Notes: generated from the letters alone by a model not told the origin. Numbered from the stretch's first letter, positions 16,881 through 40,621 are shown. The stretch is 64,000 nucleotides of DNA from a virus (IMGVR_UViG_3300021426_000084), one strand, 5' to 3'. A program made the numbers and translations.

Positions 16881-17216
16881 ATGACTTACGCAAAATGCAT
16901 AACTATTAGCAAGGAAAAAGCAAAGTTTATCAATTATGCTTTAACTCATGAACCGAAATGCAAGGAAGATATGGTTATTGGGGAAGACAGTACGATTGTA
17001 AATTATGTGAACTTCCCCAATGGCTATTCGATGGATATTAAATGCTGCGGCGTCAAATTTGACCCAAGCACGAGTAATACGGCCTGGACAGAAGCTGTGC
17101 TATTTGATGAAAATGGGGTTGAGGTTGCACGCTCAGATGCCGAAGAACAGTATACAGGCAAATGGGAACTGAAAGATGATAATACAACTTACATTGTAGA
17201 TGTAATGGTTGCTTGA
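16881..17216 (+). CDS. hypothetical protein
   Basis: 111-aa ORF with SD ttggagaaag. Confidence 0.5.
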   Translation: MTYAKCITISKEKAKFINYALTHEPKCKEDMVIGEDSTIVNYVNFPNGYSMDIKCCGVKFDPSTSNTAWTEAVLFDENGVEVARSDAEEQYTGKWELKDDNTTYIVDVMVA

Positions 17217-17240
17217 GTAAGGAAAAGGAATGAAATAAGA

Positions 17241-17681
17241 TTGGACATCAATATTAACAACTTAAAGAAATATGATACCGAACATGCTAAAGCGGGCGAT
17301 ATGCTGATTTCAGCTTATCGTTCCAGCTATAGCAGCCGTTGGGCCTTTAGTCAACATATCATTAAATCTGTATCTGATAAACGCGGCGACATTACGTTTG
17401 ATAATGGAAAACGGTTTGATCGCCAAGGACGGAGATACGGCAGACAAAGGTACGATACCAGTAATGATGTGCTGCTGGAGGTCAATGAGGATAATGTGAT
17501 AGAGATTAACGCCTATGCAAAACATCAGTCTTTGGTGTTTAAGACACGTAAGGCCCTGGAGGCTCTACTCAAAAATGGATGCAGCCGGTTAGACGATATG
17601 CCAACAGAAAAGATTGAGCAATTCTATGAAGTGGTAAAAGATTTTGCAGGAGGGGAATCAAATGAACTATTGGAGTGCTAA
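17241..17681 (+). CDS. hypothetical protein
   Basis: TTG start after aaggaaaagga. Confidence 0.45.
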   Translation: MDININNLKKYDTEHAKAGDMLISAYRSSYSSRWAFSQHIIKSVSDKRGDITFDNGKRFDRQGRRYGRQRYDTSNDVLLEVNEDNVIEINAYAKHQSLVFKTRKALEALLKNGCSRLDDMPTEKIEQFYEVVKDFAGGESNELLEC

Positions 17682-18420
17682 GCAGCAAAATGCCGAACGT
17701 GCCAGACGGCGCACAGAGGAATTCGAAGCGAACTTTACGCCGTCAATGAACTATGCGTTGGTCAGCACTACCGTATATGGCGGCAAAGACCAGAATGTCA
17801 TCGGCAACCCATTTACCGATATCTGTGAAGAATTTGAAGTGGTACAGATGTCTACGGCCGAAGCCATTTATGAGCTAGGGAATAACAACTGCATTGCTCT
17901 GAATTTCGCGTCATATAAAAATCCGGGCGGCGCGTACCTGAATGGCAGCTGCGCGCAGGAAGAATCTTTGTGTCACGAAAGCTGGTTGTATAACATTTTG
18001 GCTCGATTCCAGAGCTATTATGACTGGAACAAAAAGAATCTGAATCGCGGCTTATATAAAGACCGCGCTCTTTACACGCCGGATGTATATTTTAGCGACG
18101 GCGAAAGAAATGCCATAGCTGACATTCTTACCTGCGCTGCCCCGAATCGCAGTATCATTGTCAAAGGATACACCAACTTTACGGAGGAAGAGAACTATAA
18201 AGTTCTGCATGACCGTATGCTGTTCATGTCCAAGATTTGTTCTTTGAAAAAGAAGGACACACTTATTCTCGGCGCATGGGGATGCGGCGTGTTTAAACAG
18301 GACCCGAAAATTGTGGCAAGACTCATTCGCAATACTACATGGCGCGGCGTAAAGAAAATCGTACTGGCTGTCATTGATAAGCCAACGTATGAAGTATTCA
18401 AGAAAGTTTTTGAGGAATAA
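17662..18420 (+). CDS. PARG-like macrodomain protein (DUF2263/TIGR02452-type ADP-ribose hydrolase fold)
   Basis: NFASYKNPGGAYLNGSCAQEESLCHESWLY matches the bacterial-type PARG signature (G-G..QEE..C(R/H).S.LY); ATG 17662 after gcaggagggg. Confidence 0.6.
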   Translation: MNYWSAKQQNAERARRRTEEFEANFTPSMNYALVSTTVYGGKDQNVIGNPFTDICEEFEVVQMSTAEAIYELGNNNCIALNFASYKNPGGAYLNGSCAQEESLCHESWLYNILARFQSYYDWNKKNLNRGLYKDRALYTPDVYFSDGERNAIADILTCAAPNRSIIVKGYTNFTEEENYKVLHDRMLFMSKICSLKKKDTLILGAWGCGVFKQDPKIVARLIRNTTWRGVKKIVLAVIDKPTYEVFKKVFEE

Positions 18421-18437
18421 AGTCAGGAGGGATTATT

Positions 18438-19706
18438 GTGGCAGATATTCTATTGAAGAGTTTCTTTGAAAAATCGCGGTGGGAATCTGCCATTGATACG
18501 GGCGTAGCTAAACGTCTGGACAGATGCATGCTGAAAGAAATGTGTACTAAAGAAGGGCGCCTTGACCTTTACCATCGCATTCGTGATAACAAGTATTACA
18601 TCCGCCCACCGCATGAAGCACTTATCCCCAAGGATAACGGGGAATTTCGAACGGTTTACGTTAACGAAAATGAAGACCGAATTATCCTGTCCATCATCAA
18701 TGACATGCTGTTCGACCTGTATCCACAGAAAGTACATCCGGCCTGCCGTTCTTACCAGAAAGGTATCGGATGCGGCAAGATAGTGCAGGAGGCATCCAAA
18801 GTCCTGGCCGGTATTCATAGCAGCATCGTAGGCTACAAGGTTGACCTTAGTAAGTATTTCGACTCTGTACCTCGCCAGTATATCGATGAAGTATTTGATG
18901 ATGTCGAAAGTAAATTCGGCGCATCCAAAATCATCGATATCCTGCGTGAGTATTATCATACGGATATGGTATATAATCTGCAGAAAAAGCTGATTGAAAA
19001 ATACTCAAGCTTAAGACAGGGATGTGCCGTGGCCGCATATCTTGCCGATGCCGTTCTTTATGACATTGACGATTGCTTATCCAAAATGCCGGGTATTTAC
19101 TACGTCCGTTACTCCGACGACATTCTTATCCTGGGTGAACAAAACAGAACCGGAAAAGCCTTTGACAAACTCAGTGAACTTCTGACGCAGAAAGAGCTGA
19201 AGCTAAATCCAAAGAAGGTGGAAGTCCTGCAAAAAGACCGCTGGTTTAAGTTCCTGGGTTTCACACTGAAGGAAAATCATATCAGCCTGTCTAAGTCACG
19301 AATTAAGAGATTCCAAAAGGCAATTGATGAGCATACATTCAAAGGCAAGTCAAGGAATGAATACCAGCTGGTCAAGAATGTGTTCCGCGCCTTATATCAG
19401 GGCGAAGATGATTACAGTTGGGGAACTAGCGTATTGCCCATCATTAATGTTCAGAAGGACATCGATACCCTGAATTCTTATGTCATGGATGCTATTCGGG
19501 CGGCCATAACCGGGAAAACCCGTATTGGCGGCCTTGGCGTCACAATAAATCAAAGAGATTGTACTATTGCCAGAGGCAAGGGGCGTAACGTTAAGATGAA
19601 TCGGATAAAAAATCCTGTATTGGAATCTTATCTGAGTATCGGTTGCATGCGTAATGCCCTTCTAACTTCGAAAGAGGCTTATTTGACTTTGGCTATGTCA
19701 ATCTGA
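18438..19706 (+). CDS. reverse transcriptase (free-standing, group-II-intron-like/unclassified lineage)
   Basis: RT motifs 1-7: IPKDNGEFRTV, SYQKGIG, GYKVDLSKYFDSV, LRQGCAVAAYLAD, YYVRYSDDILIL (YxDD), LNPKKVEV, FKFLGF; about 110-aa thumb-like C-terminus; GTG start after aggaggg. Confidence 0.85.
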   Translation: MADILLKSFFEKSRWESAIDTGVAKRLDRCMLKEMCTKEGRLDLYHRIRDNKYYIRPPHEALIPKDNGEFRTVYVNENEDRIILSIINDMLFDLYPQKVHPACRSYQKGIGCGKIVQEASKVLAGIHSSIVGYKVDLSKYFDSVPRQYIDEVFDDVESKFGASKIIDILREYYHTDMVYNLQKKLIEKYSSLRQGCAVAAYLADAVLYDIDDCLSKMPGIYYVRYSDDILILGEQNRTGKAFDKLSELLTQKELKLNPKKVEVLQKDRWFKFLGFTLKENHISLSKSRIKRFQKAIDEHTFKGKSRNEYQLVKNVFRALYQGEDDYSWGTSVLPIINVQKDIDTLNSYVMDAIRAAITGKTRIGGLGVTINQRDCTIARGKGRNVKMNRIKNPVLESYLSIGCMRNALLTSKEAYLTLAMSI

Positions 19707-20156
19707 AAAAAAGTGAGCACACACTTTGACAGATATCCAGCCTATCTTTATCTATAAAGGCTGGGTCTGGAGGAATCTGGATAACTCCAGATCCATCCGA
19801 GACCAGCCTCTTATAGATTGGAAACAAATAAATAAATGTGCGAAAGGATTGTGTATCTGCAAAAAAATGAGCACACATTCTATATGTATGAGCTTGCGCA
19901 ATCAACTATTATGACATATCCTGAACACTGCTGCTGACCAAGCAGCTGAGTTCAGGATATGTCATCGTATATTGAGTCAATTAAAGAAATGTGCCAGCAA
20001 GCGTGTACATATTGGCGAGCATACGCCAGTTAAACATATTGGTTCCAGACCTTTAATATCGCTGATGAGAAGATGTCTCAGCTGCCGATAGCAGCTCCGA
20101 GACATCTTCTCATCTGGATATATTGAGCAAATAAAGAACTATGCAAAGGAGCATGT
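19707..20156. other. 450-bp structured non-coding region immediately 3' of the RT: three tandem units, each a long perfect hairpin plus a conserved ~40-nt motif
   Basis: 21-mer direct repeat ctg(a/c)aaaaaa(g/a)tgagcacaca at 19703 and 19857; hairpins 19775-19792, 19911-19975 (16-bp arms), 20064-20114 (16-bp arms); conserved tatattgagYcaaWtaaagaa..tgYRc..aRg..gtgta after each. Confidence 0.5.
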
Positions 20157-20540
20157 ATGTTATCGGTAAATCTTAATACAAAGACAGCCAAGAAAAACGG
20201 GAAGGTCATTATTAAAAACGGTATTCCACAAAACGGCTATAAAATAAGCGAAGCTCCGATATCGTTTGAAGATATTGAAACTTTATATACTGCTTATAAA
20301 CATTCTGTTCCTAATGGAATGCGACGGCAGCGCAAATTCTTTCGTGCCCTGTCAGAGAATGAGTTAAGCACGGAGGACTTAATTGCCGGCGAAAATCGAC
20401 AGAAAACAAAAGAAAGGCTGGAAATGGCTATCTTGGAAGGCGGCCTCAATGGCAGCCTGAAATGGCCAGATAGCACGAAATGGTTTTGGCAATCAGAAAA
20501 AGACCCAGATTTAATTGTATTGAAAAAGTGGATTGCTTAA
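20157..20540 (+). CDS. hypothetical protein
   Basis: 127-aa ORF with SD aaaggagc. Confidence 0.55.
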   Translation: MLSVNLNTKTAKKNGKVIIKNGIPQNGYKISEAPISFEDIETLYTAYKHSVPNGMRRQRKFFRALSENELSTEDLIAGENRQKTKERLEMAILEGGLNGSLKWPDSTKWFWQSEKDPDLIVLKKWIA

Positions 20541-20552
20541 GGAGAAAAAATA

Positions 20553-21644
20553 ATGAATGAAAATTTACATGTATACTGCCCGAAATGCGGTTCTGAAGTA
20601 ATGCTGGCCGATGAAAACGGCAAGGCAATTATGCCGAAAAGCGGTGATTTCTTTCTGCGGTTAAAGAATAACGACCCGGAAAAGGCTAAGAGACTGAAAA
20701 ACGTCATCAATGCCCTGTACGGTAACGACGTAGAGGTTAAGAATGTTGGTGTAGTAACGGAAAAATCCCGGCATCGCAATCCGTTTACAGATTTAGCAAT
20801 GTTTCATAAGGAACAGGACAAAGACGATATTGAAGAATCCATCCTGAAAGATGGTGATATCAATTCAAAGTTCTTGTGGCGCCGCTGGATTATGGCGCAA
20901 GTTCTTCGCCATTACAAAACTGCTGATGGTCAGGAAAATTTCCACAATTATTTCATTAAGAGCAAGAGTATGCACTATGTTTTTAAAACCTGTATCGCAG
21001 AAGCTAAAGCGTTGAGCAATCTCTCTGGCCAGGAACTGGAAGAGCGAAAAATGTTCTTCAACGGAGAGGTCTTTCAGCAGATCATTGGAGATTATTTTAC
21101 GCAATATCGCAATGAGATTACGGCGAAATTGGAAGAATTGGATCAGGCCAATCGCCGGACTGTCCTTAAAAAGGGCTTCAATGCAAAATTGGAAGACACC
21201 TTTGTTATCGGTAAGAAAGCTTACGGGGAATGTGACGTTGTGGTGGCTCAGAAATACATGGATGATTTCATGTATAAGATGACAACGTTTGTAAACGATG
21301 ACAACTACAAAGCCGTGGCAAAAACGATGTTCGAGATTTACCTCGCATTTCCGCCGTTCAAACATTGCAAAAAGAGCAAGGCTTGGATGGACGCATTTAA
21401 GGGCGCCGGCGCATTCTATACCTTGGACAATCTGCTTCGTTGGCATCATTGCACAATTCGTGACGAAAATACCAATGAAGTATATTCCGGCGACCGTGCG
21501 CTGAAATATCTGCGTGACAGAACAAAGGCTCTGCCATCCAAAGAATACTATAAACTCTATGCCATTATGAAGCGTGTGGTTGAGGAAAACAACTTTGATT
21601 TCAACAAGCGTATGGAAGAACTGCGCAATAAGGGGATAGCGTAA
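20553..21644 (+). CDS. hypothetical protein with N-terminal zinc ribbon
   Basis: CPKCGSEV; 363 aa; SD aaggagaaaaaat. Confidence 0.55.
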   Translation: MNENLHVYCPKCGSEVMLADENGKAIMPKSGDFFLRLKNNDPEKAKRLKNVINALYGNDVEVKNVGVVTEKSRHRNPFTDLAMFHKEQDKDDIEESILKDGDINSKFLWRRWIMAQVLRHYKTADGQENFHNYFIKSKSMHYVFKTCIAEAKALSNLSGQELEERKMFFNGEVFQQIIGDYFTQYRNEITAKLEELDQANRRTVLKKGFNAKLEDTFVIGKKAYGECDVVVAQKYMDDFMYKMTTFVNDDNYKAVAKTMFEIYLAFPPFKHCKKSKAWMDAFKGAGAFYTLDNLLRWHHCTIRDENTNEVYSGDRALKYLRDRTKALPSKEYYKLYAIMKRVVEENNFDFNKRMEELRNKGIA

Positions 21645-22006
21645 TGCGTACAATAATAGCGGGCGGCCGCGACTTTACCAATACAAGTGTAGCCTTTGCC
21701 TGTTTGGAGTCATTGGTCGAAGCCGGAGATATCATTATCTCCGGCCATGCCTCCGGCGCCGACCATATCGGAGAACTCTATGCGGAGAAGCATGGATTAG
21801 AGTGTGAGCTCTATCCGGCAGACTGGAAAACTTATGGCCGGGCGGCAGGGCCTATCCGCAACGAGCAGATGGCCAAAGTAGCCGACAGACTCATTGCTTT
21901 TTGGGACGGTAGGTCCCGTGGCACAAAGTCTATGATAAACCTGGCCAAGAAGCATGACTGCGAGGTAATCGTGTTTGATTACTACGGAAACGAGGTGTCG
22001 ATATGA
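21644..22006 (+). CDS. SLOG-fold protein (DprA/Smf/LOG-like Rossmann domain, DUF2493-type)
   Basis: IIAGGRDF...SGHASGADHIGE...GPIRNEQM...FWDGRSRGT pattern. Confidence 0.45.
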   Translation: MRTIIAGGRDFTNTSVAFACLESLVEAGDIIISGHASGADHIGELYAEKHGLECELYPADWKTYGRAAGPIRNEQMAKVADRLIAFWDGRSRGTKSMINLAKKHDCEVIVFDYYGNEVSI

Positions 22007-22380
22007 TTGATACAATAAAAGAAGTGCTCGAAAAAGAGCTGGGGGAAAAATTAAACATCTGCGGTGTCGAAATCCAAAATGGTGAATACTATGCAGAACT
22101 GGAATTTGGCAGTGATGCCGGCGAAGACTTTGTTTTCGATGTTTGGTTTGACGGTACATGGAATGATTTTGTAACAAAGTTCCGTCAATATGCTGCCGAT
22201 TTCGACCCGGATGAACATGCTGCAATGTGGGTTGACTCACGAGGGAAAAATGGTGTTCCGGATTCCATAAGAGCACTCATTAACGATGCAGATAGTATCC
22301 AAGAATATCTCGAACAGTTTTCAGATGGCCTGAAATACGACAAATATGATGACGAATGGAACGAGGTAGAACAATCATGA
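22003..22380 (+). CDS. acidic hypothetical protein
   Basis: 125-aa ORF with ATGA coupling. Confidence 0.5.
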   Translation: MIDTIKEVLEKELGEKLNICGVEIQNGEYYAELEFGSDAGEDFVFDVWFDGTWNDFVTKFRQYAADFDPDEHAAMWVDSRGKNGVPDSIRALINDADSIQEYLEQFSDGLKYDKYDDEWNEVEQS

Positions 22381-22553
22381 AAATCAGCGAAGTAATCAGC
22401 AGCCTCCAAAAATGGAAGAATACCATCGGTGATGCTGAAGTGATGATTGTCGTCGATGATAATGGTTCAACAGCGGCTACATTTGACTACCATTTTGAGC
22501 ATGGCCGTAATCCCTATGGCGATGAGATTCTGGTCATAAACGGAAGGAATTAA
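22377..22553 (+). CDS. small hypothetical protein
   Basis: ATG 22377 overlaps the upstream stop. Confidence 0.4.
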   Translation: MKISEVISSLQKWKNTIGDAEVMIVVDDNGSTAATFDYHFEHGRNPYGDEILVINGRN

Positions 22554-22555
22554 CA

Positions 22556-23002
22556 ATGAAGTATCTATTTCTTGACATTGATGGGGTGATGAACTCCGCT
22601 GCAGACTGGTTCTCTACAAAGCTCATAAGCGATAAGCCATTTGAGCTCCTAAAGAAAATCATAGATGAAACCGGCGCGAAAATCATCTTATCTTCGTCAT
22701 GGCGCGCCGGTTATGAGCGTGGTACTTGTGACCTGCTTAAACAGCGTTTAGCTGAGTACGGTTTATTCATAGAGGATGTAACACCGCAAAGTGGCCGGCG
22801 CGGAAAAGAAATTCAGGAATGGCTTACTGCGCATGACTACGATGAGAATGTAGATACCTTTGTCATTCTGGATGACGAAGATTTCGACATCCTGGCAATC
22901 TATCCAGAGCAGTTGGTTAAGACTGATGCCCTGATCGGCCTATCAGGCTATAACGCTTGGCAATGCATTAGCAAGCTAAATCGAAAGAAGCGAGTTGTAT
23001 GA
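22556..23002 (+). CDS. HAD-superfamily hydrolase-like protein
   Basis: FLDIDGVM motif I; 148 aa. Confidence 0.5.
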   Translation: MKYLFLDIDGVMNSAADWFSTKLISDKPFELLKKIIDETGAKIILSSSWRAGYERGTCDLLKQRLAEYGLFIEDVTPQSGRRGKEIQEWLTAHDYDENVDTFVILDDEDFDILAIYPEQLVKTDALIGLSGYNAWQCISKLNRKKRVV

Positions 23003-25930: not shown

Positions 25931-26407
25931 CTGCTTAGTAACTGAAAACGTACTCAGGTATGTAAAAATGTGTAGCAATATGCTAAAGACTCAAGAAATC
26001 CATTGAGTTAGTTCGTGCTGACTTTATAGCAGTCGGAATGGCTGGAAATAAACCAGAGGCGGTTGAAACAGTCCGTCTAACTACGGGATAGCACCCTGAT
26101 GGTAGCCGTTGGACAGTGGTAAATGCGAGAACCAAGCAAAGGCTGGCGAGCCTAAACGCAAAACAATATCACGAAAGGAGAAAGCTACTAGATGTAATCG
26201 GCAGAATATCATAAACAAGATACTGTCGATATGTACCGATGGCTAGTCGGGAATTTACGTCTTCGGAGTATCACACAAACGTTAGTAGCCTGTCTTTCGG
26301 GACGGCGAGAACGGATACGATGAACAAGGAACTACAAATCGTGAGATTGTAGCGATACATCTTGATATAGGCATATTTGTCTATATTTTAAGTAGCAGTA
26401 ACTGCCG

Positions 26408-26953: not shown

Positions 26954-27043
26954 CGCAAAAGGCCCCCAAAAGGGGGCCAACTGCGTGTTAGGTAACAAAA
27001 AAAGAAAGTGTTTCAATCCACTCCCGGTCAAAGCCAGGAGACA

Positions 27044-27205
27044 AGCCGCCTATTCGGCGGTAAACATGATATTCCAAATTCATAGATTTCTAAGCCGCCT
27101 ATCCGGCGGGAAAAAGGAACCACCAATTTGATAGATTTCTAAGCCACCTACTCGGCGGTAAACAAAACCAAGAAAAATATAAATTTCTAAGCCGCCTATG
27201 CGGCG
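27044..27205. repeat. four direct repeats of a 16-bp GC hairpin (gccRcctaYNcggcgg) at exact 49-bp spacing; copies 2-4 share the 5' flank atttctaa
   Basis: copies at 27044, 27093, 27142 and 27190; AT-rich variable spacers of about 25 bp. Confidence 0.7.
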
Positions 27206-27319
27206 GTGAACTGGAATATCATGATATAATGATATCAGAAATTTTTTTCTTTGTCTAGCAGGAGTCTTAAAGGATATGCTAGAATAAAGAAAGAAGATTG
27301 TGTAAAAGGGGGATTAATT

Positions 27320-30289: not shown

Positions 30290-30364
30290 TCCCCAGTAGC
30301 TCAGCTGGTAGAGCATCTGACGATTAATCAGGTGACGCAGGTTCGAGTCCTGCCTGGGGAGCCA
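30290..30364 (+). tRNA. tRNA, anticodon unresolved (loop CGATTAA lacks U33)
   Basis: 7-bp acceptor stem tccccag/ctgggga, D-arm gctc/gagc, T-loop ttcgagt, CCA encoded. Confidence 0.6.
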
Positions 30365-31018
30365 ATTTAATATTAACAAACAGAAAACTATGGCAAAGCA
30401 TACCTCGGTTATAAAACGCAATATCATGCGTCCGAGAATGGCCCCGTAATTGATACTGACAAACTGCAGTAGATATGCCTGCAGCGAGTACGTCCTTTCT
30501 TAGCGATAAGAGTAGGGTGATGCGTAAAGTGTAAGCGCATGTATCTTGAGGTTATGTGCATGCAATGCCGAGCGTTAAAGCAGGAACTGATAGGGTTTCA
30601 TAAGTGTATGAGTACAAATGGTGTGCTCCGCTGCCGCCAGTAAAGACTAAAGCGTGATAAACTTTAGGTACACGAGGTATTTATCAAGATGGAACTTTGC
30701 CGTGATGTCTTCAAAAGAGACTATAACTGTCAGTCGCCGTATGAGTAGCCCAAGGCAATGATACAGATCAAGTATGTAGCTTTATAGCAATCTATAATTC
30801 TGAATGACGGGTGAAAGTTGGAAGTCTTAATCTTCTCGGAGCTAGAAAGAGGCAAGAAGCGCGTGTCGACGGGCGCGTTGCTCAGACTTGTCTTCTCCGT
30901 GGCTGAATAAATGCAGAGCATCAAGTTGTGTACAGGGAAACCTGATGTTTTGCCGTAGTTTTGTGTTTGTTAATAACACAACTAAAAATGCGCCCAAGCG
31001 GCGCGGTTACAATTTTGT

Positions 31019-31094
31019 GTACCTTTGGTGTAATTGGTAACACGGCAGTCTCCAAAACTGTAAGATGTTGGTTCGAGTCCAGCAGGGTATGCCA
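31019..31094 (+). tRNA. tRNA-Trp (CCA)
   Basis: cloverleaf with anticodon loop ctCCAaa; CCA end. Confidence 0.75.
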
Positions 31095-31099
31095 TCTAT

Positions 31100-31173
31100 G
31101 CCGGTATAGCTCAATGGGGATAGAGCACCGAAACGTAACCTCGGCGACTCAGGTTCGAGTCCTGATACTGGCT
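31100..31173 (+). tRNA. tRNA or tRNA-like, anticodon unresolved (loop ACGTAAC)
   Basis: acceptor gccggta/tactggc, D-arm gctc/gagc, T-loop ttcgagt; no encoded CCA. Confidence 0.45.
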
Positions 31174-31556
31174 TAGCTAATTTAGTCTTACTGGTCTGAT
31201 CAACCGGTTAGGCGAAACACTACATGTAGTGCCGCGTAAAAGCGGTGTCCTTCGCGGTCGAGGGACATTAAAATTGACGGCCGCCTGTTTACGTCCCAGT
31301 ATCAGGTTAACGTCTGATCAGAGGCATACATTTTTCAGGGCGCCCACCGCAGCGCGGCACCACCGTTAATTATACGCCTAATGCCAAATGCGGTTAACTT
31401 GAATAATCCCCGTAAGGGATTAGATATATTGTTGTTAGACCCAGACGGTCGGCGACAAAGCACTGGTCACTATCCGACCACTCCGTAACTAAAATCCGTC
31501 AGCTACCGGAGGGAAACAGGACAGGTCCTGGGTAAGACATAACTGCCCACGCAAAA

Positions 31557-31632
31557 GCGGAAATAGCTCAGTTGGTAGAGCTTCTGCCTTCCAAGCAGAA
31601 TGTCGCGAGTTCGAGTCTCGTTTTCCGCTCCA
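31557..31632 (+). tRNA. tRNA-Gly (UCC)
   Basis: acceptor gcggaaa/tttccgc; anticodon loop ctTCCaa; CCA. Confidence 0.75.
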
Positions 31633-31638
31633 TATTAT

Positions 31639-31725
31639 GCCCCTGTCGCATAGAGGCCGATTGCACCGGTTTTGTAAACCGGTTCCGAAAAGGACACGTC
31701 AGTTCGAATCTGACCGGGGGCTCCA
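31639..31725 (+). tRNA. type II (long variable arm) tRNA, anticodon unresolved (loop TTTGTAA, apparent UGU)
   Basis: acceptor gcccctg/cgggggc, T-arm gtcag-ttcgaat-ctgac, 15-nt variable arm, CCA. Confidence 0.5.
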
Positions 31726-31773
31726 TAAAAACAAAAAAGCAAGACTATAAAAACATAAGGAAGGTAACAAACA

Positions 31774-32046
31774 TTGACATCTCTTGAATGGAATGACCTT
31801 GCCTCAAAATTCTATAGCTTCAAATCCGAGGCAGAAAAACATGGTTTCTATGTGCCAGAACTGGCCGGCATGGAAAACAGCCTGAATATCATTCGTCCCT
31901 ACCAGGAAAACGAAGAACTGCATAAGAAAACGGCAAGTGGATTTGTATCTCGTATGCAGAGTAAGGCTGATGATGTTAAGGCCTGGGCGTTGGCAAAGTT
32001 CAGCGCGCCGAAGTATAATGACGATGATGAGCTGGTGCATGCCTGA
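31774..32046 (+). CDS. hypothetical protein
   Basis: TTG start after taaggaaggtaa. Confidence 0.5.
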   Translation: MTSLEWNDLASKFYSFKSEAEKHGFYVPELAGMENSLNIIRPYQENEELHKKTASGFVSRMQSKADDVKAWALAKFSAPKYNDDDELVHA

Positions 32047-32288
32047 TGTTTAATTTTTCTAAATACGATATGCTGACTCTACTTGATGAGTATGTCACAT
32101 ACATTATGGCAACATGCGCAATTTTTACGGTAACAATCTTCGTCGCAATGGTAAAACATTCCCTTGAAACGGCGGTGATAATCGCTATCATGATTTTTAT
32201 CATAGGTCCAGCCGCGGGTTTCTTAGGTAGAACTATATATGACTTTATTTTAGAGAGGTTTGGTGGCAATGGTAAAGACTTATTCTAA
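32046..32288 (+). CDS. small membrane protein
   Basis: two hydrophobic helices. Confidence 0.45.
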   Translation: MFNFSKYDMLTLLDEYVTYIMATCAIFTVTIFVAMVKHSLETAVIIAIMIFIIGPAAGFLGRTIYDFILERFGGNGKDLF

Positions 32289-32513
32289 CACTAAAAAGGC
32301 AAAAGCGCTGTTTTATCCGAAGGCTAAGTGTTGCGCACACACCAATGTTATGATTGGCGGCGGCCGTTTGATGGGCCGCTACGTAGGATCGACCGGTAAA
32401 CGATGATAGCGTTAATGCTTGCTGTCGTGGTCTGGTGTTGTACGGATAACGGCTACGCAGCATTAGCAGCGTTCTTTGCTTGCTTAGCTTTGGAAAAATA
32501 AATGAGGAAAAAC

Positions 32514-33140
32514 ATGAACAATTGTCTTAAAAAGGAAATTATCTGCAGCTATAAACCTGGCGATTGGTTCGATAGGATTCCACTTGCGCATCTTTGCGAC
32601 GGCGGTATAACAGCAATCAATGTAGACCGCCGTTTTGGAAAGTCCACATTCGTCGCCAATGCAGCCAAAAAGATTTTGTCGCAAGATATGGCTGACATCA
32701 TTGTTGTTGAGTGTGGCGGCAAAAACAGAATAAAACTCATGAAAACGGTCTTTAAGGAAGTTTTCGGCGATAATTTCGAAAAACAGTACCCGCAGATTGA
32801 GATAAGGCCTCATGGCAATAGAGCACTAAGTAAGCGGCGTACAGTAATATTTATTGATGAATTTTCGTATACGGCAACCGACGATGACATCCATGAAATT
32901 CTGAAAAGCGAGCTCATCAGCGATGCACAAACCTGGATTCTTCTGGATACTTCTTATGAAGGTTCAACCGATATGAAAGACAAGAATCCGTTCGCTGGCT
33001 TACTAGAAATGCCCTTCGTAAGAACCTACGAAGTGGTTGGTCGCATTCCTGAAGAATGTCTCGCTTATTATAGCGATGAACAGCAGCAAGCGATTAAAAA
33101 GCGTCAAGAAGCATTTCATCTCCAGTGTTTCATGTTTTAA
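32514..33140 (+). CDS. P-loop NTPase-like protein
   Basis: Walker A-like VDRRFGKSTF and Walker B-like VIFIDEF. Confidence 0.5.
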   Translation: MNNCLKKEIICSYKPGDWFDRIPLAHLCDGGITAINVDRRFGKSTFVANAAKKILSQDMADIIVVECGGKNRIKLMKTVFKEVFGDNFEKQYPQIEIRPHGNRALSKRRTVIFIDEFSYTATDDDIHEILKSELISDAQTWILLDTSYEGSTDMKDKNPFAGLLEMPFVRTYEVVGRIPEECLAYYSDEQQQAIKKRQEAFHLQCFMF

Positions 33141-33223
33141 ACAAATCCCCCTCCATGTGACCGGCTAGGACGAGGCCATAGAATATCGTCCACTTTATTA
33201 AAATTCTGTTATAGGAGAGAAAA

Positions 33224-33451
33224 ATGACAGTATATATGGTTATTCACCAAACTTTGTGCGATGATTATGACCAGGACGTTATGGGTGTTTTTTCAAACGC
33301 CGAAGCCGCCCAGGCGTGCTATGACGACTGGATTAATGAATACGGCCTTGAGGGTTGTGACAATGGCGCGTATTACAATGATGGTGAACATCGCTTAGAA
33401 ATTCACTCATATAAAATTGAGGAAACTTACGAGCGAGATTCAGATTTTTAA
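33224..33451 (+). CDS. small acidic hypothetical protein
   Basis: 75-aa ORF with SD aggagagaaaa. Confidence 0.45.
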   Translation: MTVYMVIHQTLCDDYDQDVMGVFSNAEAAQACYDDWINEYGLEGCDNGAYYNDGEHRLEIHSYKIEETYERDSDF

Positions 33452-34102
33452 ATTTTGCGACCGACACTAATGTCGGCCATAAAACATGCGTGACCTGACT
33501 GCTGGTTGCCAAGAGAACCATGCAGCGAATAAAGAATGCGAAGAAGACTGACGTCATTCATCGCAAGCCTCGGAGAGCCCTGAAAGAAACTTGGCCTGTG
33601 GCAGAAATCTCCAATGAGGACACCGTAAACGCAAAATGAATTACGGTACAATCCGGCCCTAGAGAACAAGCCGGATAGACGCAAAGACCCTTACGGGTCT
33701 GAAAGATTATAGGAATAAGTGGGTCATCACCAAACCACCTATAACTGACGTTAGGCGCAGCGGAAAGACAAGTGCGATAGATGGTATGCCCAAGCCGAAT
33801 AAAAGTGAGGTCGTTCCTTATCGGAGCGAAGAAAAGTAGAGGCTTAGTCAGCACGGCGACAATGCAAAGAAAAGTTCGTGTAAAGCCGCGTTGTAAAATC
33901 AAAAGATTCAGCCCAGACCAGGCTCATAGCAGGAGGGGTTGACGCGCAATAATGACTTCATACCTTCTGGTATGGTCGCTGGACAAGGAAAAGTCTAAAA
34001 ACCCGGCACGAGAGAGGCTACACCGATGCTGAGTAGCTGAGCTGTTTGAGACGAGCAGTCATCCCGTGACGGCAGGATGTAAAATGAAGCCGCCCCTATA
34101 AT

Positions 34103-34185
34103 GAGGCAGTAGCTTAAATGGCTAGAGCAGACGGGAAAGCAAATGGGGCTTTCTTATGATGGTGGTTCGACTCCTCCCTGCCTCC
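34103..34185 (+). other. tRNA-like element (perfect acceptor pair, D- and T-arms, non-canonical anticodon region)
   Basis: gaggcag...ctgcctc acceptor pair; T-loop ttcgact; the middle 33 nt does not form a standard anticodon arm. Confidence 0.4.
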
Positions 34186-34198
34186 CCTATATCATACA

Positions 34199-34269
34199 TC
34201 CCCAAAGCTCCTCCGGCAGGGCTCGTAAGGCTACGGCCTGCGGCGAAGGTTCGAATCCTTCTTGGGGAT
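34199..34269 (+). other. tRNA-like element (acceptor pair plus T-arm, no canonical D/anticodon arms)
   Basis: tccccaa...ttgggga; gaagg-ttcgaat-ccttc. Confidence 0.35.
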
Positions 34270-35996
34270 ATCATGCTCATAGTCTGGGGGACACCGGCCG
34301 GTAGACAGGTTCGATTCCTGTAATGGGCAAAAACAAAATGCTTTCACGGAAAGTGTGCTCACCGCGAAAGAAGTTTTAGCCGCAGCAGACCGCACACCCT
34401 GGTAAATACGGCAAAAACGATGTTTCCCGATATCAAAGAATCGGGCATCAATGACTGTGGATGCGTATAAATAGACAGTCAGCTTGAGTCACCGTGGACC
34501 CCGGATACCCCAAAAGGAGTATGCCGGCTAACGCCTAGCCGAAATGGCGGGCGGCCCTGTGGGGCGCGATCCACGACACAAAAGCTTTCCTGCAGGCGGT
34601 GGGTTAACCTAGCGTATAGAAGGGGCTCCATTACCCCTGAGACAAAAGTCTCGAAGAGATGACCATTGAAGAAGGGTCTCCATTAACCCTGGCTGTAACC
34701 AGAATAGGCCAACCGTGTTTTCGGGCTCGCATCGTTATGAGCGTCCCGATTACCCGGCGCCAACAGCCGAAGAGATGACCTTTATCGGAGCGTTCGCTAT
34801 CGGACAATTACTGGGGAAGTAAGAACTAAAGGCCACGGTTTTTAGCACCCAGAATAACGACGCGAAGGCATTCCTTTCGGTGGAGGTATACCGAAGAACA
34901 ATATGAAACCTGGGCCGTCCCGATAACGCCATAAAGTACAAATGGTAGCTCGGTCAAACGGTAGCAAGGTTGCACCAAGCGTACCTGGATTACCTTCGCC
35001 TGGACGGACTAAAGTACACGGTCTATCAATTTAAGGGCGATAACAGGCACGAAGGCGATTTAGCCCCGGACAAGGCGAAAAACTGTTTAGTAGGCACCGA
35101 TTACTACTTAATAAGACAGTCGGGAACAGTGAAGACTCACTCTAAACAGGCTAGATGAGCATGGGTATCGCCCATGCCGAAGTTATCGGCCACTTCGCTG
35201 AAGACGACCGATGTGTTTGCGGGACGACCGCAACTGGGAGTGCATCCTCTCAGGATAAACCTGCAGAAGATACCTGTCCGAAACAGGATAGGGAAACCGG
35301 TGGCCAAGGCAATAATCCGGTAAACACCGATATATGTAGGACTCCCCTGCGGGGCGAGTAAGTTCATCGGTGGCCGCAAAAAGAAAACATCTCATAAGCG
35401 AGAGTCCGGTCATGAAAGCTAATCCCTTTCAGGCTCTCCCGATGCTGCTTATCTTTTCGGGCATTAAAAACACCAGACCTCGTAAGCGAAGACAGAGAGG
35501 ACGCTCTCGTTCAAATCGGTGAAGCTTGCCATCACCTATGTACAAAAAGCCTTGCCATGTAGAGCGAGCATGATGCTGCTGTAGAGTAGGTCGGGCATCA
35601 AAGATTTTAGACCTCGTAAGCAAAGACAGAGGAAACGTCCTCGTTCAAATCGGTATGAAGCTTACCCCAGATGACGGGCATTTGCCAAAGCTTGGATGGG
35701 TTAATCCGACATAGCGCTGCTACACTTCGGGCGCTAAATTAATCACACAACTGCTTGTATAAGTGCGTGTATGACTGCCGTGGAGGGGCTGCGCGTGATG
35801 GGAGAGGTTCTGCCTGATAGTGACCAAAAGAGTTCAACTACCGTGAGTCCCACGGGGAAACAACAAGCCCTGTACCTTACGAAACAGGCATGGCGCCGCT
35901 TTATGATAGTTGTTCGGGCGCTAAAAACCTGCACTGGCAACTTCATCTTTCATTGTCAGTAAAAGCGTTTGATAACCCGACCCGAAAGGGTCATAT

Positions 35997-36399
35997 GGGG
36001 CTGTAAAGGTTTCGACAGGATATTGAAGCCGTAAGATTCGCAGGCCGATGGTTATGAAGCCTAACTCATTAACCGCTAAATTCAACTGACGAAGCTGAAT
36101 ATCGTCTCGCTGCCTAATCTGCCTTAACGGTAGATTGGTTAGCCCCTATCGTATCACTAGCTGTGAGCAGGGCGATAGGTTTCAAATAAACACAGCAAAA
36201 CGTCAGGAGGCCCGCTCGACGTAAACAACACGGGGAGTTTTCCTGCTTTCTCAAAAGCAGGTGGTGGAGGTGTAGACCATTGCATCGTTGTTCGGCTGGT
36301 TACACCCTAGAGAATGGCGCTCTTAAAAATGCCTATTGCGATAATGTCTTACAGGTGGATGTATTTTGGACAGGAGTTCGATTCTCCTCAGCTCCACCA
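35997..36399 (+). ncRNA. ssrA: tmRNA (ssrA)
   Basis: 5' ggggctgtaaaggtttcgacagg and 3' ggacaggagttcgattctcctcagctccacca match tmRNA tRNA-like domain consensus; internal tag frame ends ...DEAEYRLAA-TAA. Confidence 0.8.
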
Positions 36400-36582
36400 T
36401 CGTTTCAACGAGGTTAGCGTCTCGAAGAAGCGGATTGAGAAGCTAAAATCAGCCATATCGGCTGATTGAAGTAAATCTGTGATTCTGCAGAATCTCTGGA
36501 AGCTTGCGCCAGACTTGGAATACAGCAAGACAGGTTTACTTCAGTGAACCGATATGGAAAGTAAAAATAGGGGGTACATATC

Positions 36583-36918
36583 ATGACAATTGAAGAGTTT
36601 TCTGAAAAGATAAAACTCAAAGAAGAAAACGTAGGACGATTAAAAGAATACATCAAACAGGCAGATAGAATGGACTCGGTTGTATTTTGGTATCGCAAAA
36701 CGGAAGAATACATGGGCAATCATGGTTACGCCGAAGGCGACAATAGTTTTTCCGTTGCTATTAAAGATAATAGCGGCCTCTTTGGCCCTGATTTTAATGA
36801 GTTAAAGACGCATTATCTTCAGATATTAGAAGACGAATTAGCTAAAGCTGAAAATGAACTGAAAGCCATGAAAGAGAAAAAGATAAAAATAGAAGAGTGG
36901 CTTTCTGAAGAATTATGA
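36583..36918 (+). CDS. coiled-coil hypothetical protein
   Basis: 111-aa ORF with SD aaaatagggggt. Confidence 0.5.
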   Translation: MTIEEFSEKIKLKEENVGRLKEYIKQADRMDSVVFWYRKTEEYMGNHGYAEGDNSFSVAIKDNSGLFGPDFNELKTHYLQILEDELAKAENELKAMKEKKIKIEEWLSEEL

Positions 36919-37472
36919 ACAAGACAGTAAAGTTATATCTTCTCGGTGGTACTGCTGTCGTAGACTTTGTTTATTCGGCAACATCACCAATTATTCATAT
37001 ATATTTCATAAGTCTGATAAGTTCCAGCGTTTTGGCCATGGCCAATATCCTGACCACCGCTTTAGCAGCAGGTGTAAATGCTTCGATTCAGTCTGACAAA
37101 CTTAAGGATTTTTATCGGCATCATTTTCTCTGGATAATTACAATAGATATTATCTGCTTCGCGCTTATCAGTTTCGAAGGTATATCTATACCGGAAGTCA
37201 GGTTTCTCGGCTTAGCAGTTTTAAATGCTGTGTCATCAACACTCTGGTTTACGGTAATAAACGACGCGATTAATCATCAAATTGAAGGCGATAGATTGAC
37301 AAAATGGAATAGCTTATCTAAAACGGTTAACCTTACAGCCGCCCTCGCCGGCAGCGTAATCGCGATAATCTTTACAAATATCGGCGTAGAGTATTGTATC
37401 GCGGCCCAGTGCATAGCAAATCTTGTCATGGGTGCAACTGATTGGCTGGCTTATAAGAGGATAAGATATTGA
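36915..37472 (+). CDS. integral membrane protein (about 5 TM helices)
   Basis: hydrophobic throughout; ATGA overlap. Confidence 0.55.
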   Translation: MNKTVKLYLLGGTAVVDFVYSATSPIIHIYFISLISSSVLAMANILTTALAAGVNASIQSDKLKDFYRHHFLWIITIDIICFALISFEGISIPEVRFLGLAVLNAVSSTLWFTVINDAINHQIEGDRLTKWNSLSKTVNLTAALAGSVIAIIFTNIGVEYCIAAQCIANLVMGATDWLAYKRIRY

Positions 37473-37618
37473 TTAATCTGCTTGATTTTATTATATACTT
37501 TTTTATTTTCATCACGTTACTGTGTATAATAAAAGCCACTATTGTTCTTGGCTTCACAATAACTTTTCCGGCAATTTTGATGTTTGTAGCTATTGTTTTG
37601 GCAATGATGGAGGAAGAA

Positions 37619-37818
37619 TGAGTAAAAGAAATTTACGCATTGGCGATAATGCTTATCTGGCTAATTGTGAAGACTGGTCAAATAGCTATTATCCTTGCAA
37701 AGTCATCAAGGTAAGGGATGACAACACGTATGACTTGTACGAACCTAGTATTGGCAAAACTCATTACGGTGTTCATCGTGATGCTATTGTGGATCAGATT
37801 GAATTCGATGCCGGATGA
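37619..37818 (+). CDS. small hypothetical protein
   Basis: ATG 37619 after ggaggaaga. Confidence 0.45.
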
Positions 37819-37845
37819 TGAGATATTAAAAGGGGATAGAATTAC

Positions 37846-38094
37846 ATGATAGCGAAAAAGACGTGGAATGAGTTTAGAGAGACAGGCTTATTCCTTCTGG
37901 TAAATCAGTTCCTGCACATTTTTGGATGGGCGTTGGTTGTTGAGGCAACGGAAGACGGAGAAGTAATTGAATGTTATCCCGCCCGCACTAAATTCAGAGG
38001 ATTTGGCGAGAAAAGCGTTTCGGCAGCTTACCAAAAAGTAAGCAAATATATGGCAGATAACGCCGCCGAGTTATACGAAGAAGCAAAGCGATAA
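37846..38094 (+). CDS. hypothetical protein
   Basis: 82-aa ORF with SD aaaggggat. Confidence 0.5.
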   Translation: MIAKKTWNEFRETGLFLLVNQFLHIFGWALVVEATEDGEVIECYPARTKFRGFGEKSVSAAYQKVSKYMADNAAELYEEAKR

Positions 38095-38219
38095 TGGAGA
38101 AAAAATCGAATGATAGCAATAGATGACAGTTTTGTGGCGGCCATGCTTATATTCGCCTTCGCAATGATTTGGGTAATAGCGATTGGAGCTGTATCCATGT
38201 TGAATGATGAAGATAGAAC

Positions 38220-38417
38220 ATGAATAAAGTCATTGATTTACAAAAGTACAGAGAAGAAAACAACCCACATGAAGTGGCCGAAGTAATCTGTTTGCATTGT
38301 ATGAACCGTTGGATATCCGTGCATGAGCAAGGTGAATGGCTTGCTAAATGGGAATGTCCTAAATGTAGTAAAGTGGGCGGCATTATATATACGGGACAAC
38401 CATTGCCAGAGGAGTGA
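38220..38417 (+). CDS. small zinc-ribbon protein
   Basis: CLHC...CPKC. Confidence 0.45.
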   Translation: MNKVIDLQKYREENNPHEVAEVICLHCMNRWISVHEQGEWLAKWECPKCSKVGGIIYTGQPLPEE

Positions 38418-38484
38418 ATAAATAATGAATGATGAATGGACGTAAAAGCTAACAACAGATAGCACTAGATGAGGAGTGATAAGC

Positions 38485-38712
38485 TTGAAAAAATATATGA
38501 TTGGAGTCCTGATGGGGCTAATCATTGGCTTAACAGCTACGGCGTTTGCCGGTTATTGGAGTCAGAGTGTTACTGTTTATACTGACCCAGACACGCAGGT
38601 GCAATACCTTATCGTCGAAGAAAATAGCAGTGATGGCATGGGTGTTGGTATCTGCCCGCGTTACACGTCTTCCGGCAACATTATGTATGTTGGCAGTGAG
38701 ATAGTAGAATGA
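38485..38712 (+). CDS. small membrane/secreted protein
   Basis: TTG start after gaggag; hydrophobic N-terminus. Confidence 0.45.
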   Translation: MKKYMIGVLMGLIIGLTATAFAGYWSQSVTVYTDPDTQVQYLIVEENSSDGMGVGICPRYTSSGNIMYVGSEIVE

Positions 38713-38921
38713 TTAGGTCAAAAAAGCTTCGATATTACAACAAGAAAATGTGGCGCGCATTATATGTTTGCCATAATTCGAGAAATACATTACTCGATAG
38801 TATAACGGGAGTTTTTGGAAATCCTCCGCACCGTCCTGAGCGGGGATTAAAATTTGCCGCTGAACTATATCAATGTCTAGGATTAAAACTTCCGACATTT
38901 TATGCGAGAGAAGACAGATGA
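38709..38921 (+). CDS. hypothetical protein
   Basis: 70-aa ORF with ATGA overlap. Confidence 0.4.
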   Translation: MIRSKKLRYYNKKMWRALYVCHNSRNTLLDSITGVFGNPPHRPERGLKFAAELYQCLGLKLPTFYAREDR

Positions 38922-39103
38922 TGGAATTCAAATTAAATCCAAAGCTTGAAGAATGGATAAATGAGCATAACAAAATCTGTCATTCCAATGCTTCGGCCGG
39001 CGAACATTATCAATTTGAATTTCTACCAACAGGCATTATGGAAATCCAAACCGTTAAATGTCTTTGCTGCGGAGAAGAAAGGACAGAATATGATGGCTGG
39101 TGA
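38918..39103 (+). CDS. small zinc-ribbon protein
   Basis: CHS...C...CLCCGE. Confidence 0.4.
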   Translation: MMEFKLNPKLEEWINEHNKICHSNASAGEHYQFEFLPTGIMEIQTVKCLCCGEERTEYDGW

Positions 39104-39299
39104 ATGGGCGCAAAAATTGACAACAGAACGAGTAATTAAACATATTCAAGATGGTATAAAGAAAGCGCACAAAGCATTTTTGGCTCAACAAGCTATCCTT
39201 TCAATGAATAAATCTCACAGAAGGCGTCGGCAAATAGCAAAAGCTTATAAGCTGATTTACCCAATGGCAACGATAAATTTGACAAGGAAAAGTCATTAA
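39090..39299 (+). CDS. small basic protein
   Basis: ATG 39090 after gaaaggacag. Confidence 0.4.
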   Translation: MMAGEWAQKLTTERVIKHIQDGIKKAHKAFLAQQAILSMNKSHRRRRQIAKAYKLIYPMATINLTRKSH

Positions 39300-39860
39300 A
39301 ACCCATCACAGCAGGAGCGTCTGTGGATACGTTGAGCTCGCACCCAGGAGTCAATAGCCGTGTTAAAGTCAGGCAACGTAGAGGCCAAATACTTAGATAT
39401 AATAGTAGTATCACCCCGTCGCGCAGGGGAGGTGTACGGTGCAAGTCCGTACAGACATTGGCAAGAGAGCTTCATAATCTGCAGTAAAGCAGCAAAAATC
39501 CTCCGCCCATGTTCGCAACAGGTAAAGGGCGTAAAAGATGTAAACCTGTCCGGCCGAACGCAAAACCTGTGATGCATGCTGTAACAGGAAGGTCACTGCC
39601 GCCTTAAGAGAAGAAAAGTGATTCCCATGGAGAACTCCAGTGTGGTCCGTTCCGCTCCATGGTATAGCTATTGCGTTATGCTATGTAAAAAGTACGCACG
39701 TTCGGGTGAATGTGAGACCCCGCGTGAGGAACAACGAAAGAGATTCCTGTTTTCCCAGCATTTTTGGTACAAAAATGTTGCGCCAGCCTTTGACCTGACC
39801 AGTCAATAAAAAGTCAGCGATATGACCAGGGGGGCAGTTAGCTTGAGCCCCCACCATTAT

Positions 39861-39953
39861 GGGAGATTGGACCTGGATTGGAGCCAGGGCAGCATTTAGC
39901 GCTGCGCAGGGTACGCGCCCTCAACGTAAGTTCGAATCTTACATCTCCCGCCA
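39861..39953 (+). tRNA. type II tRNA (93 nt), anticodon loop ATTTAGC (apparent UUA or UAG; unresolved)
   Basis: acceptor gggagat/atctccc, T-arm gtaag-ttcgaat-cttac, long variable arm, CCA encoded. Confidence 0.5.
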
Positions 39954-40121
39954 AAAGAAAAAAACAGGTGATAAATATGTCTCCTCTCGATTGGCTTGAT
40001 GATGAAGAAGATAAAATTGATCATCATTAAGGGGCCATCCGTAGTCCACTGCAAAGGACGAGCCGGTAGAATGATGGGTTGGCATCCTCCGTTTCGGGCT
40101 TCGTAAAAAGTACCACAAGGG

Positions 40122-40160
40122 CTGCGGCGTGATTTGCAGACGCCGCAGAATTACTCTTGT
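40122..40160 (+). terminator. hairpin, possible terminator
   Basis: ctgcggcg ... cgccgcag stem followed by a partly T-rich tract. Confidence 0.35.
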
Positions 40161-40169
40161 TATTATTAT

Positions 40170-40246
40170 GCGCCACTTAGCTTAACAGGAAGAGCCTATG
40201 GGTCTAGCTCATAGAGATTCTGGTTCAAATCCAGAGGGGCGCACCA
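40170..40246 (+). tRNA. type I tRNA with apparent CUA anticodon (amber-suppressor-like)
   Basis: acceptor gcgccac/ggggcgc (one mismatch), D gctt/gagc, anticodon stem tatgg/tcata with loop gtCTAgc, T-arm tctgg-ttcaaat-ccaga, ACCA. Confidence 0.5.
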
Positions 40247-40544
40247 ATATCATGTCCCTAATGAGGTTAGCGTCTCAGCGGGGAGGAATCCGTTTTAGTT
40301 TACCCTGAGGAATAGGCAATGATGAGTGCGCAATTATCTAGCTGAAACGAGGGGTAAATGAGGGCCTGCAGGGCAACCAGGTGCGGATATAGTATGCAGA
40401 GAACTACAACCTGCCGGAAACTTGACTGCCGTTATAGATGTCAAGCGTAGAATACCACGTTAGGTGTATCGAGGGAGCCGGCAATCTCCCGACGTCAGCC
40501 AAAAACTTACCAGAGGCGGCAAATTGCCATGCCGTCTCGATTAA

Positions 40545-40621
40545 GGACCCCTAGCTCAGTTGGTCAGAGCATCCGGCTCATAACCGGCGGGTCCTCGGTT
40601 CAAGTCCGAGGGGGTCCACCA
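40545..40621 (+). tRNA. tRNA-Met/Ile2 (CAU)
   Basis: acceptor ggacccc/ggggtcc; loop ctCATaa; CCA. Confidence 0.7.

Follow-up and report, generated by a model that had tools for sequence, protein, structure and literature searches.

The 64,000-nt stretch of viral DNA analysed here (IMGVR_UViG_3300021426_000084, hereafter the window) carries at 17662-22006 a run of co-oriented, closely spaced genes, with gaps of 0-17 nt except where an array of structured non-coding RNA (ncRNA) intervenes. These genes encode a PARG-like macrodomain protein, a reverse transcriptase (RT), a small (sORF) and a large (bORF) accessory protein of families linked to UG27 RTs, and a SLOG (YAcAr) protein, and the array lies between the RT gene and the sORF gene. 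All of the open reading frames (ORFs) were found at the coordinates given in an earlier description made from the nucleotides only, which we call the sequence-only reading. We conclude that the region 18438-21644 is very probably a complete UG27 reverse-transcriptase system of a large gut phage, made up of the RT, a three-unit array, sORF and bORF. Two gene clusters linked to UG27 RTs in gut phages (346 and 337) have been described, together with an ncRNA predicted between the UG27 RT and the next gene (Mestre 2022, PMC9226505). In the 'Minerva' preprint of September 2026 (bioRxiv 10.64898/2026.09.22.753630), the UG27 intergenic region is described as a variable array whose units, of ~150 nt, consist of a basal hairpin, a pseudoknot and a main hairpin; the asymmetric loop of the main hairpin bears UUYA and AUCN7UANAG. 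In E. coli, the RT, sORF and bORF were all required for making 50-100-nt single-stranded DNA (ssDNA) copies of the central hairpins. Five systems were tested in that study.

The identity of the RT is carried by its profile score. Its best match in PADLOC was RT_UG27 by far (590 bits, E = 4.7e-178, residues 1-420 against profile positions 1-418 of 420), followed by UG26 (137 bits, 1.9e-40) and UG17 in third place (1.2e-32); the CRISPR-associated RT models scored far below RT_UG27, and Pfam RVT_1 was matched at 7e-25. The protein contains YVRYSDDILIL, and its catalytic YSDD, which is invariant in the alignment of RT homologues, is intact; more than 4,600 homologues were collected at E<=1e-20. 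Judged by profile score, the RT is a full-length UG27 member of the class 2 UG/Abi RTs. The sequence-only reading, which had not named UG27, had described a free-standing RT belonging neither to introns nor to retrons nor to diversity-generating retroelements (DGRs), and this description was borne out. Sequence matches in the PDB were weak and included the Ec86 RT (7e-5), DRT9 and Drt3a. Compared with copies from IMG/VR and from genomes, the window RT is 48-56% identical, with 52% for the Alistipes putredinis locus and 51% for the Phocaeicola coprophilus locus. The nearest genome-borne RT (56% identical) comes from a metagenome-assembled genome of an uncultured Bacilli member. When the RT alone was used for searching, no close relatives were found in the viral contig or genome contig collections, and blastn of 17600-22100 against the phage record collection found no match.

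Two other kinds of element were considered for this RT and rejected. For a group II intron, no Rfam intron family was matched in 17000-23000 at E<=1, and the neighbours of the RT gene are the PARG-like gene, which ends 17 nt before it, and the array on its downstream side. For a DGR, the RT matches UG27 best rather than a DGR RT, and a search of the rest of the window for a variable-repeat-like or target-like copy of the array gave a longest match of 14 nt (E=0.09).

The two genes after the array complete the protein set of a UG27 system. The sORF product matched PADLOC RTas346 (8e-36, profile positions 18-144 of 147), and the bORF product matched RTas337 (1.8e-43, profile positions 2-315 of 316). 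Following the RT, sORF is found in 82 of 91 related loci and bORF in 80 of them, and the order RT, array, sORF, bORF is preserved in 80-82 of the 91. The frames of all three genes are intact in the window, and the invariant residues are present. The bORF product is mostly helical with the conserved motifs RRWIMAQ and AFKGAGAFYT. Its earlier label of 'Zn-ribbon' is weak and was rejected, as the N-terminal 100 residues have a single CPxC, are poorly modelled (predicted local distance difference test, pLDDT, ~44-73) and are absent from many homologues. Because sequence searches of the PDB with sORF and bORF gave nothing meaningful, and no informative fold or sequence match was found there for either protein, we propose no function for the accessory proteins. 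A 125-aa protein encoded downstream at 22003-22380 has no Pfam match. Of the 91 related loci, 13 have a homologue in the vicinity of the UG27 module, and in loci L007, L023 and L025 it lies between RT and sORF.

The gap between the RT and sORF genes folds strongly, with RNA fold z-scores of -14.8 on the plus strand and -10.9 on the minus strand, and it contains no ORF conserved in relatives. Rfam gave no match over 17000-23000 at E<=1. Using R1, a covariance model built from 19 units of window-clade gaps, the whole window was searched on both strands with filters off, and exactly three units and nothing else were found (Table 1). They stand head to tail, and their lengths lie in the range of ~135-167 nt expected of UG27 units and within the published ~149-nt length class. 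In every unit, a basal hairpin that takes part in a pseudoknot is followed by an outer stem, and an asymmetric internal loop separates this stem from a long central hairpin of variable sequence. The pseudoknot is a 5-bp helix between the basal loop (AGCACA or AGCAUA) and a UGUGC or UAUGC box on the 3' side of the internal loop, and this loop carries a UUYA-type motif on its 5' side and AUU-N7-9-UAAAG/U on its 3' side.

These results refine what had been read from the sequence. The periodicity of ~150 nt was confirmed, with direct-repeat spacings of 153 and 150 nt, and so was the conserved 3' motif. The hairpins are also real, with 25-bp arms at 19911-19935/19941-19965, perfect 16-bp arms at 20064-20079/20099-20114 and an imperfect stem at 19750-19818, except that the second one ends at 19965 and had been drawn to 19975. 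The '21-nt direct repeat' exists as well; it corresponds to the basal hairpin NNNG-AGCACA-CNNN and is found in three units instead of two. The array also runs further than thought, to 20162 rather than 20156, so it overlaps the start of the sORF gene. Within this overlap, the 3' strand of the closing stem of unit 3 holds GGAG (20148-20151) and the sORF start codon ATG (20157-20159). The ribosome-binding site and start of sORF lie inside the last unit in the window and in the related loci L001 and L086, and not in L004, L005 or A. putredinis. To judge from this arrangement, the closing stem of unit 3 may link the translation of sORF to how the RNA folds or is processed.

Table 1. Positions of the genes and RNA features of the UG27 locus and its immediate neighbours in the window.
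Feature	Position	Strand	Length	Remarks
PARG-like macrodomain gene	17662-18420	+		Pfam PARG_cat_microb 6e-27
UG27 reverse transcriptase	18438-19706	+	422 aa	PADLOC RT_UG27, Pfam RVT_1; GTG start; catalytic YSDD at residues 225-228
Intergenic gap with ncRNA array	19707-20156		450 nt	
ncRNA unit 1	19709-19860	+	152 nt	R1 103.6 bits, E=8e-20; unit fold z=-6.0
Unit 1 basal hairpin	19712-19725			loop AGCACA 19716-19721
Unit 1 outer stem	~19730-19743 with 19846-19859			
Unit 1 UUUA	19747-19750			
Unit 1 central hairpin and predicted cDNA template	19751-19819			
Unit 1 AUU	19817-19819			
Unit 1 UAAAU	19829-19833			
Unit 1 pseudoknot partner UGUGC	19837-19841			pairs with loop 19717-19721
ncRNA unit 2	19863-20012	+	150 nt	R1 102.2 bits
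Unit 2 basal hairpin	19866-19879			loop AGCACA 19870-19875
Unit 2 outer stem	19882-19897 with 19997-20012			
Unit 2 AUCA	19901-19904			degenerate UUYA
Unit 2 predicted cDNA template	19905-19973			
Unit 2 central hairpin	19911-19965			
Unit 2 AUU	19971-19973			
Unit 2 UAAAG	19982-19986			
Unit 2 UGUGC	19990-19994			
ncRNA unit 3	20013-20162	+	150 nt	R1 88.8 bits
Unit 3 basal hairpin GGCG-AGCAUA-CGCC	20014-20027			loop AGCAUA 20018-20023
Unit 3 outer stem	20033-20046 with 20148-20161			
Unit 3 UUUA	20052-20055			
Unit 3 predicted cDNA template	20056-20124			
Unit 3 central hairpin	20064-20114			
Unit 3 AUU	20122-20124			
Unit 3 UAAAG	20132-20136			
Unit 3 pseudoknot partner UAUGC	20140-20144			compensatory with loop
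sORF, UG27 small accessory protein	20157-20540	+	127 aa	cluster 346 / RTas346
bORF, UG27 large accessory protein	20553-21644	+	363 aa	cluster 337 / RTas337
SLOG (YAcAr) gene	21644-22006	+		Pfam YAcAr 1e-14

The structure of the unit is supported by covariation among relatives. From metagenome assemblies we collected loci with 80-95% RT identity (L001, L004, L005, L086 and L087), whose RT-to-sORF gaps range from 456 to 1381 nt, each with the repeating unit. The covariation alignment contained 28 units from five loci (the window, L004, L005, L086 and L087); two loci outside the set used for building R1 contributed 12 of these units. In this alignment, 96.3% of cells were paired, as against 14-56% when the 3' partners were slid by one to three columns. 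Paired cells amounted to 97% in the basal stem (4 pairs), 94-95% in the outer stem (12 pairs) and 100% in the pseudoknot (5 pairs). Double-sided changes were found in 18 of the 21 pairs, including compensatory changes in 4 of the 5 pseudoknot pairs; since the pseudoknot is outside the R1 structure, the alignment was not fitted to it. Such compensation can be seen even within the window, where unit 3 has GCAUA/UAUGC against GCACA/UGUGC in units 1 and 2. Among the aligned units, the basal stem occurs as AAGUG/CACUU, AAUG/CAUU, GGCG/CGCC and AACG/CGUU. The central segments share no sequence, yet their mean fold z-score is -6.4 and 25 of the 28 form a single long hairpin; the central hairpins of the window units have z-scores of -6.9 to -9.4. 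One unit of the 7-unit array of L005 (3059-3214 in that locus), which was missed by R1, has AUGCAUUUGCAU in place of the AGCACA basal hairpin with the 3' UGUGC box kept, and it resembles the pseudoknot-lacking class of the preprint.

The same architecture connects the window array with the published UG27 units, in which the central hairpin is preceded by the motif UUYA and followed by AUCNNNNNNNUANAG. In units 1, 2 and 3 of the window, the positional equivalents are UUUA, AUCA and UUUA on the 5' side, and AUU-N9-UAAAU, AUU-N8-UAAAG and AUU-N7-UAAAG on the 3' side. The published pattern AUCN7UANAG itself is found downstream of the RT, spaced as the units are, in L022, L027, L028 and L157, the last being the 6-unit locus of A. 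putredinis DSM 17216 that was tested in the preprint. When a unit of A. putredinis (ACCG-AACACA-CGGT ... UUCA ... hairpin ... AUC-GAAGUCG-UAAAG-AAA-UGUGU) is set beside unit 2 of the window (AAUG-AGCACA-CAUU ... AUCA ... hairpin ... AUU-GAGUCAAU-UAAAG-AAA-UGUGC), the same design is apparent.

Because of the short reach of R1, this likeness was examined using an architecture descriptor and a second model, R2. The descriptor, which consists of a 4-bp stem with a 6-nt loop starting with A, then AU[CU]-N7-9-UANAN-N2-4 and the reverse complement of the loop, gave 207 forward-strand and 9 reverse-strand matches over 1.0 Mb of loci, and it fits all three window units as well as A. putredinis (L157) and P. 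coprophilus (L142). AUU was found in 20 of 20 descriptor-fitting units within the arrays of six loci of the window clade, where the descriptor demands AUC or AUU, and in 12 of 18 units of this clade when the triplet was left free. For R2, a stand-in for the authors' covariance model, 52 units were taken exclusively from other clades, with L157 and L142 among the sources; its RNAalifold structure is limited to the basal stem of 4 bp, the variable hairpins being beyond what MAFFT can align. With R2, the window units were three of the top four matches in the window, at their exact coordinates, with 25.5 bits for unit 3 (E=7e-4), 18.3 bits for unit 2 (E=0.02) and 10.1 bits for unit 1 (E=0.95). On the basis of the descriptor and R2 results, we assign the array to a divergent UG27 clade with an AUU start triplet. 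The proposal of the sequence-only reading that the hairpin array is a 'DRT-like' template or scaffold ncRNA of the RT was supported.

Several observations weigh against the assignment to UG27. The exact AUCN7UANAG pattern is absent from the window array; the clade has AUU and spacers of 7-9 nt, unit 1 has UAAAU, and unit 2 has AUCA in place of UUYA. R1 is clade-specific and fails to detect the units of loci with RTs of 52-63% identity, and the R2 scores of units 1 and 2 are marginal. The departures from the published motifs, together with an array that is the smallest among the close relatives examined, could also be taken to mean that the locus is a decaying, non-functional UG27 remnant with three units and degenerate AUC and UUYA motifs. 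We consider this very unlikely, given that none of the three ORFs is disrupted and all keep their invariant residues, YSDD among them, that AUU recurs across the clade at the frequencies given above, that base pairing is maintained by compensatory changes, and that a 95%-identical relative retains the same three units. Similarly, the co-orientation and tight spacing of all the genes, the PARG gene adjoining the RT in L001 and L004 and the SLOG gene after bORF in L005 might suggest that PARG, RT, array, sORF, bORF and SLOG form one composite module for ADP-ribose or nucleotide-signalling anti-defence. This too has little probability. Among non-redundant neighbours, PARG is directly upstream of the RT in 3 of 98 (97 loci and the window, namely the window, L001 and L004) and SLOG directly downstream of bORF in 2 of 48 (the window and L005), as against the frequencies of sORF and bORF given above; in L086, with 95% RT identity, a further ORF separates the RT from a PARG fragment; and the five tested UG27 systems make cDNA with the three proteins alone. 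The single PARG/RT/'Zn-ribbon'/SLOG signalling module of the sequence-only reading was accordingly given up.

The RT and its array also invite comparison with retrons, in which a retron RT would use an msr/msd-like RNA to make branched multicopy single-stranded DNA (msDNA) primed from the 2'-OH of a conserved G. A free-standing RT beside a structured ncRNA that is closed by an outer stem and yields a short ssDNA hairpin is common to both, a cd01646 retron-type RT domain match is reported in the preprint (10.64898/2026.09.22.753630), and the weak PDB match to the Ec86 RT points the same way. However, the retron-type RT models in PADLOC reached 1e-14 to 6e-18, against 4.7e-178 for UG27; three tandem units are present instead of a single msr-msd; the two conserved accessory proteins are of families unknown in retrons; and no Rfam retron ncRNA family was matched in the searched region even at E<=1, all of which makes a retron extremely improbable. 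An equally remote reading takes the hairpin block as a transcriptional control region with promoter, operators and terminators, or as encoding two small peptides. It could draw on TTGACA-17-TATCTA at 19726-19754 and on the ATG/GTG frames of 14-15 codons opening units 1 and 2, both put forward in the sequence-only reading, and neither was supported. Within 19707-20156, the consensus scan picked up no terminator-like site and did not list the TTGACA-17-TATCTA match. This match lies in the 5' strand of the unit 1 outer stem, and the orthologous units of L086 and L001 have not retained its TTGACA. The 'start codons' are located within the covarying basal stem, where other units have GGCG, AACG or UGCG, and it is the pairing that is conserved and not the reading frame.

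With the locus taken as a UG27 system, its products can be predicted by homology with the five tested systems. The operon would be transcribed through the array, and a complex of RT, sORF and bORF would bind each unit. DNA synthesis would begin across from AUU, which stands where the published motif has AUC, and the RT would copy the central hairpin and halt after the UUYA motif. Applying these published start and stop rules, from the AUC-equivalent triplet to UUYA, the expected products are three distinct ssDNA hairpins of ~68-69 nt, complementary to the three templates in Table 1, and, folded as DNA, these predicted cDNAs form hairpins with z-scores between -7 and -10.

The size of the array varies among close relatives, with counts of 3, 3, 4, 7, 7 and 9 units. 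The window units have their orthologues in the three units of L086 and in units 2-4 of L001, whose array is longer by one unit at its 5' end. Identity between orthologous units is 63-93% for the scaffold (most comparisons 74-93%) and 62-75% for the central hairpin; the RT gene has a nucleotide identity of 80-88%. Paired changes in the central hairpins seem to keep the stems, as judged from an alignment by eye. With regard to the loops, tetraloops were present in 71 of 175 distinct single-hairpin central segments from the window and loci L001-L170. The most frequent central loop was UAUC (26), followed by UAU, GAUU and UAAC, the last being that of window unit 1; the common loops may serve recognition, or their frequency may be due to the loci being related.

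Our best guess for the role of the system is that, in the infected cell, the DNA hairpins target host proteins or nucleic-acid structures and might, for instance, be decoys against host defences. This guess rests on the phage-borne nature of the system, on the faster divergence of the hairpins relative to the scaffold and on the gain and loss of units between close relatives. Against an anti-defence role, which is pure inference, no defence-island enrichment was found by Mestre 2022 (PMC9226505), and the hairpins were found to have no complementarity to phage or host genomes (bioRxiv 10.64898/2026.09.22.753630). A more speculative proposal, which we consider rather unlikely, is that the array is a modular, fast-evolving 'library' of ssDNA hairpins, each unit's hairpin neutralising or mimicking a different host target such as a DNA-structure-sensing defence sensor or nuclease, with units gained, lost and rewritten in an arms race and with the unit 3 stem tying translation of the accessory proteins to folding or processing of the array.

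Compared with the published UG27 systems, the window locus has the same three protein families, gene order and ~150-nt unit architecture, a phage location and a varying unit number. It differs in having AUU, 7-9-nt spacers, AUCA in unit 2 and three units, and in that its last closing stem covers the Shine-Dalgarno sequence and start codon of sORF. A stand-alone RT with an adjacent scaffold or template ncRNA is also found in DRT10 (UG17), DRT9 (UG28), DRT2 (UG2) and DRT3 (UG3 and UG8), of which DRT10, DRT9 and DRT2 belong to class 2 as does UG27. In contrast to the phage-encoded UG27, these are bacterial anti-phage systems making long or repetitive DNA, such as the tandem repeats that DRT10 produces by protein priming (PMC12632851) or the concatemers of DRT2 (10.1101/2024.05.08.593200), whereas UG27 needs two extra proteins, uses a template array and makes discrete 50-100-nt hairpins. 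Retrons likewise produce a short ssDNA hairpin from a defined, stem-closed ncRNA segment with defined start and stop, but they have an RT of another clade, a single ncRNA, msDNA with a 2'-5' branch to RNA and effectors unrelated to sORF and bORF.

The element is thus of an already known kind, with a biochemical output shown in published systems; only the clade-level variants are new, and the present picture of the UG27 family is left unchanged by it. UG27 is among the few RTs that are borne by phages and not by their hosts, and the window locus provides a divergent and compact example with three units and an AUU start triplet in place of the published AUC. Its relatives with 3-9 units, among them L001 with the window's three units and one more, form a natural series for studying which features set the start and stop of reverse transcription, and the same series bears on unit gain and loss and on whether the hairpin sequence matters.

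The phage context of the RT and hairpin array noted in the sequence-only reading was likewise supported. The gene content of the window, with a head maturation protease, ~15 transfer RNAs (tRNAs), a transfer-messenger RNA (tmRNA) and a ROOL RNA, indicates that it is part of a large phage genome, and one relative of the locus sits on a 285-kb contig from pig gut. The assignments of the PARG-like and SLOG genes were confirmed by Pfam. Both are lineage-specific neighbours outside the UG27 core, and they may be independent counter-defence genes of the window phage lineage.

Other elements were also observed in the window. At 27043-27237 there are four tandem 48-49-nt units with a conserved part, GTTTACCGCCGAATAGGCGGCTTAGAAA on the minus strand, and 'spacers' of ~21 nt; the Rfam family CRISPR-DR4 matches at 27184-27211 with 46 bits. 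The conserved part resembles a type I-F CRISPR repeat, and the region could be a phage mini-array or solitary repeats resembling RNA anti-CRISPRs. A RAGATH-18 RNA motif lies at 26260-26331 (66 bits against a gathering score of 45), and a full-length ROOL RNA (Rfam RF03087, 216 bits) at 30380-30963 comes right after a tRNA (30290-30364) and upstream of the tRNA cluster. The ~15 tRNA genes at 30290-42476 are accompanied by the tmRNA gene (35997-36399, tag DEAEYRLAA), and they include two suppressor-like tRNAs with the anticodons UUA (39861-39953) and CUA (40170-40246), which hint at stop-codon recoding in part of the phage genome.

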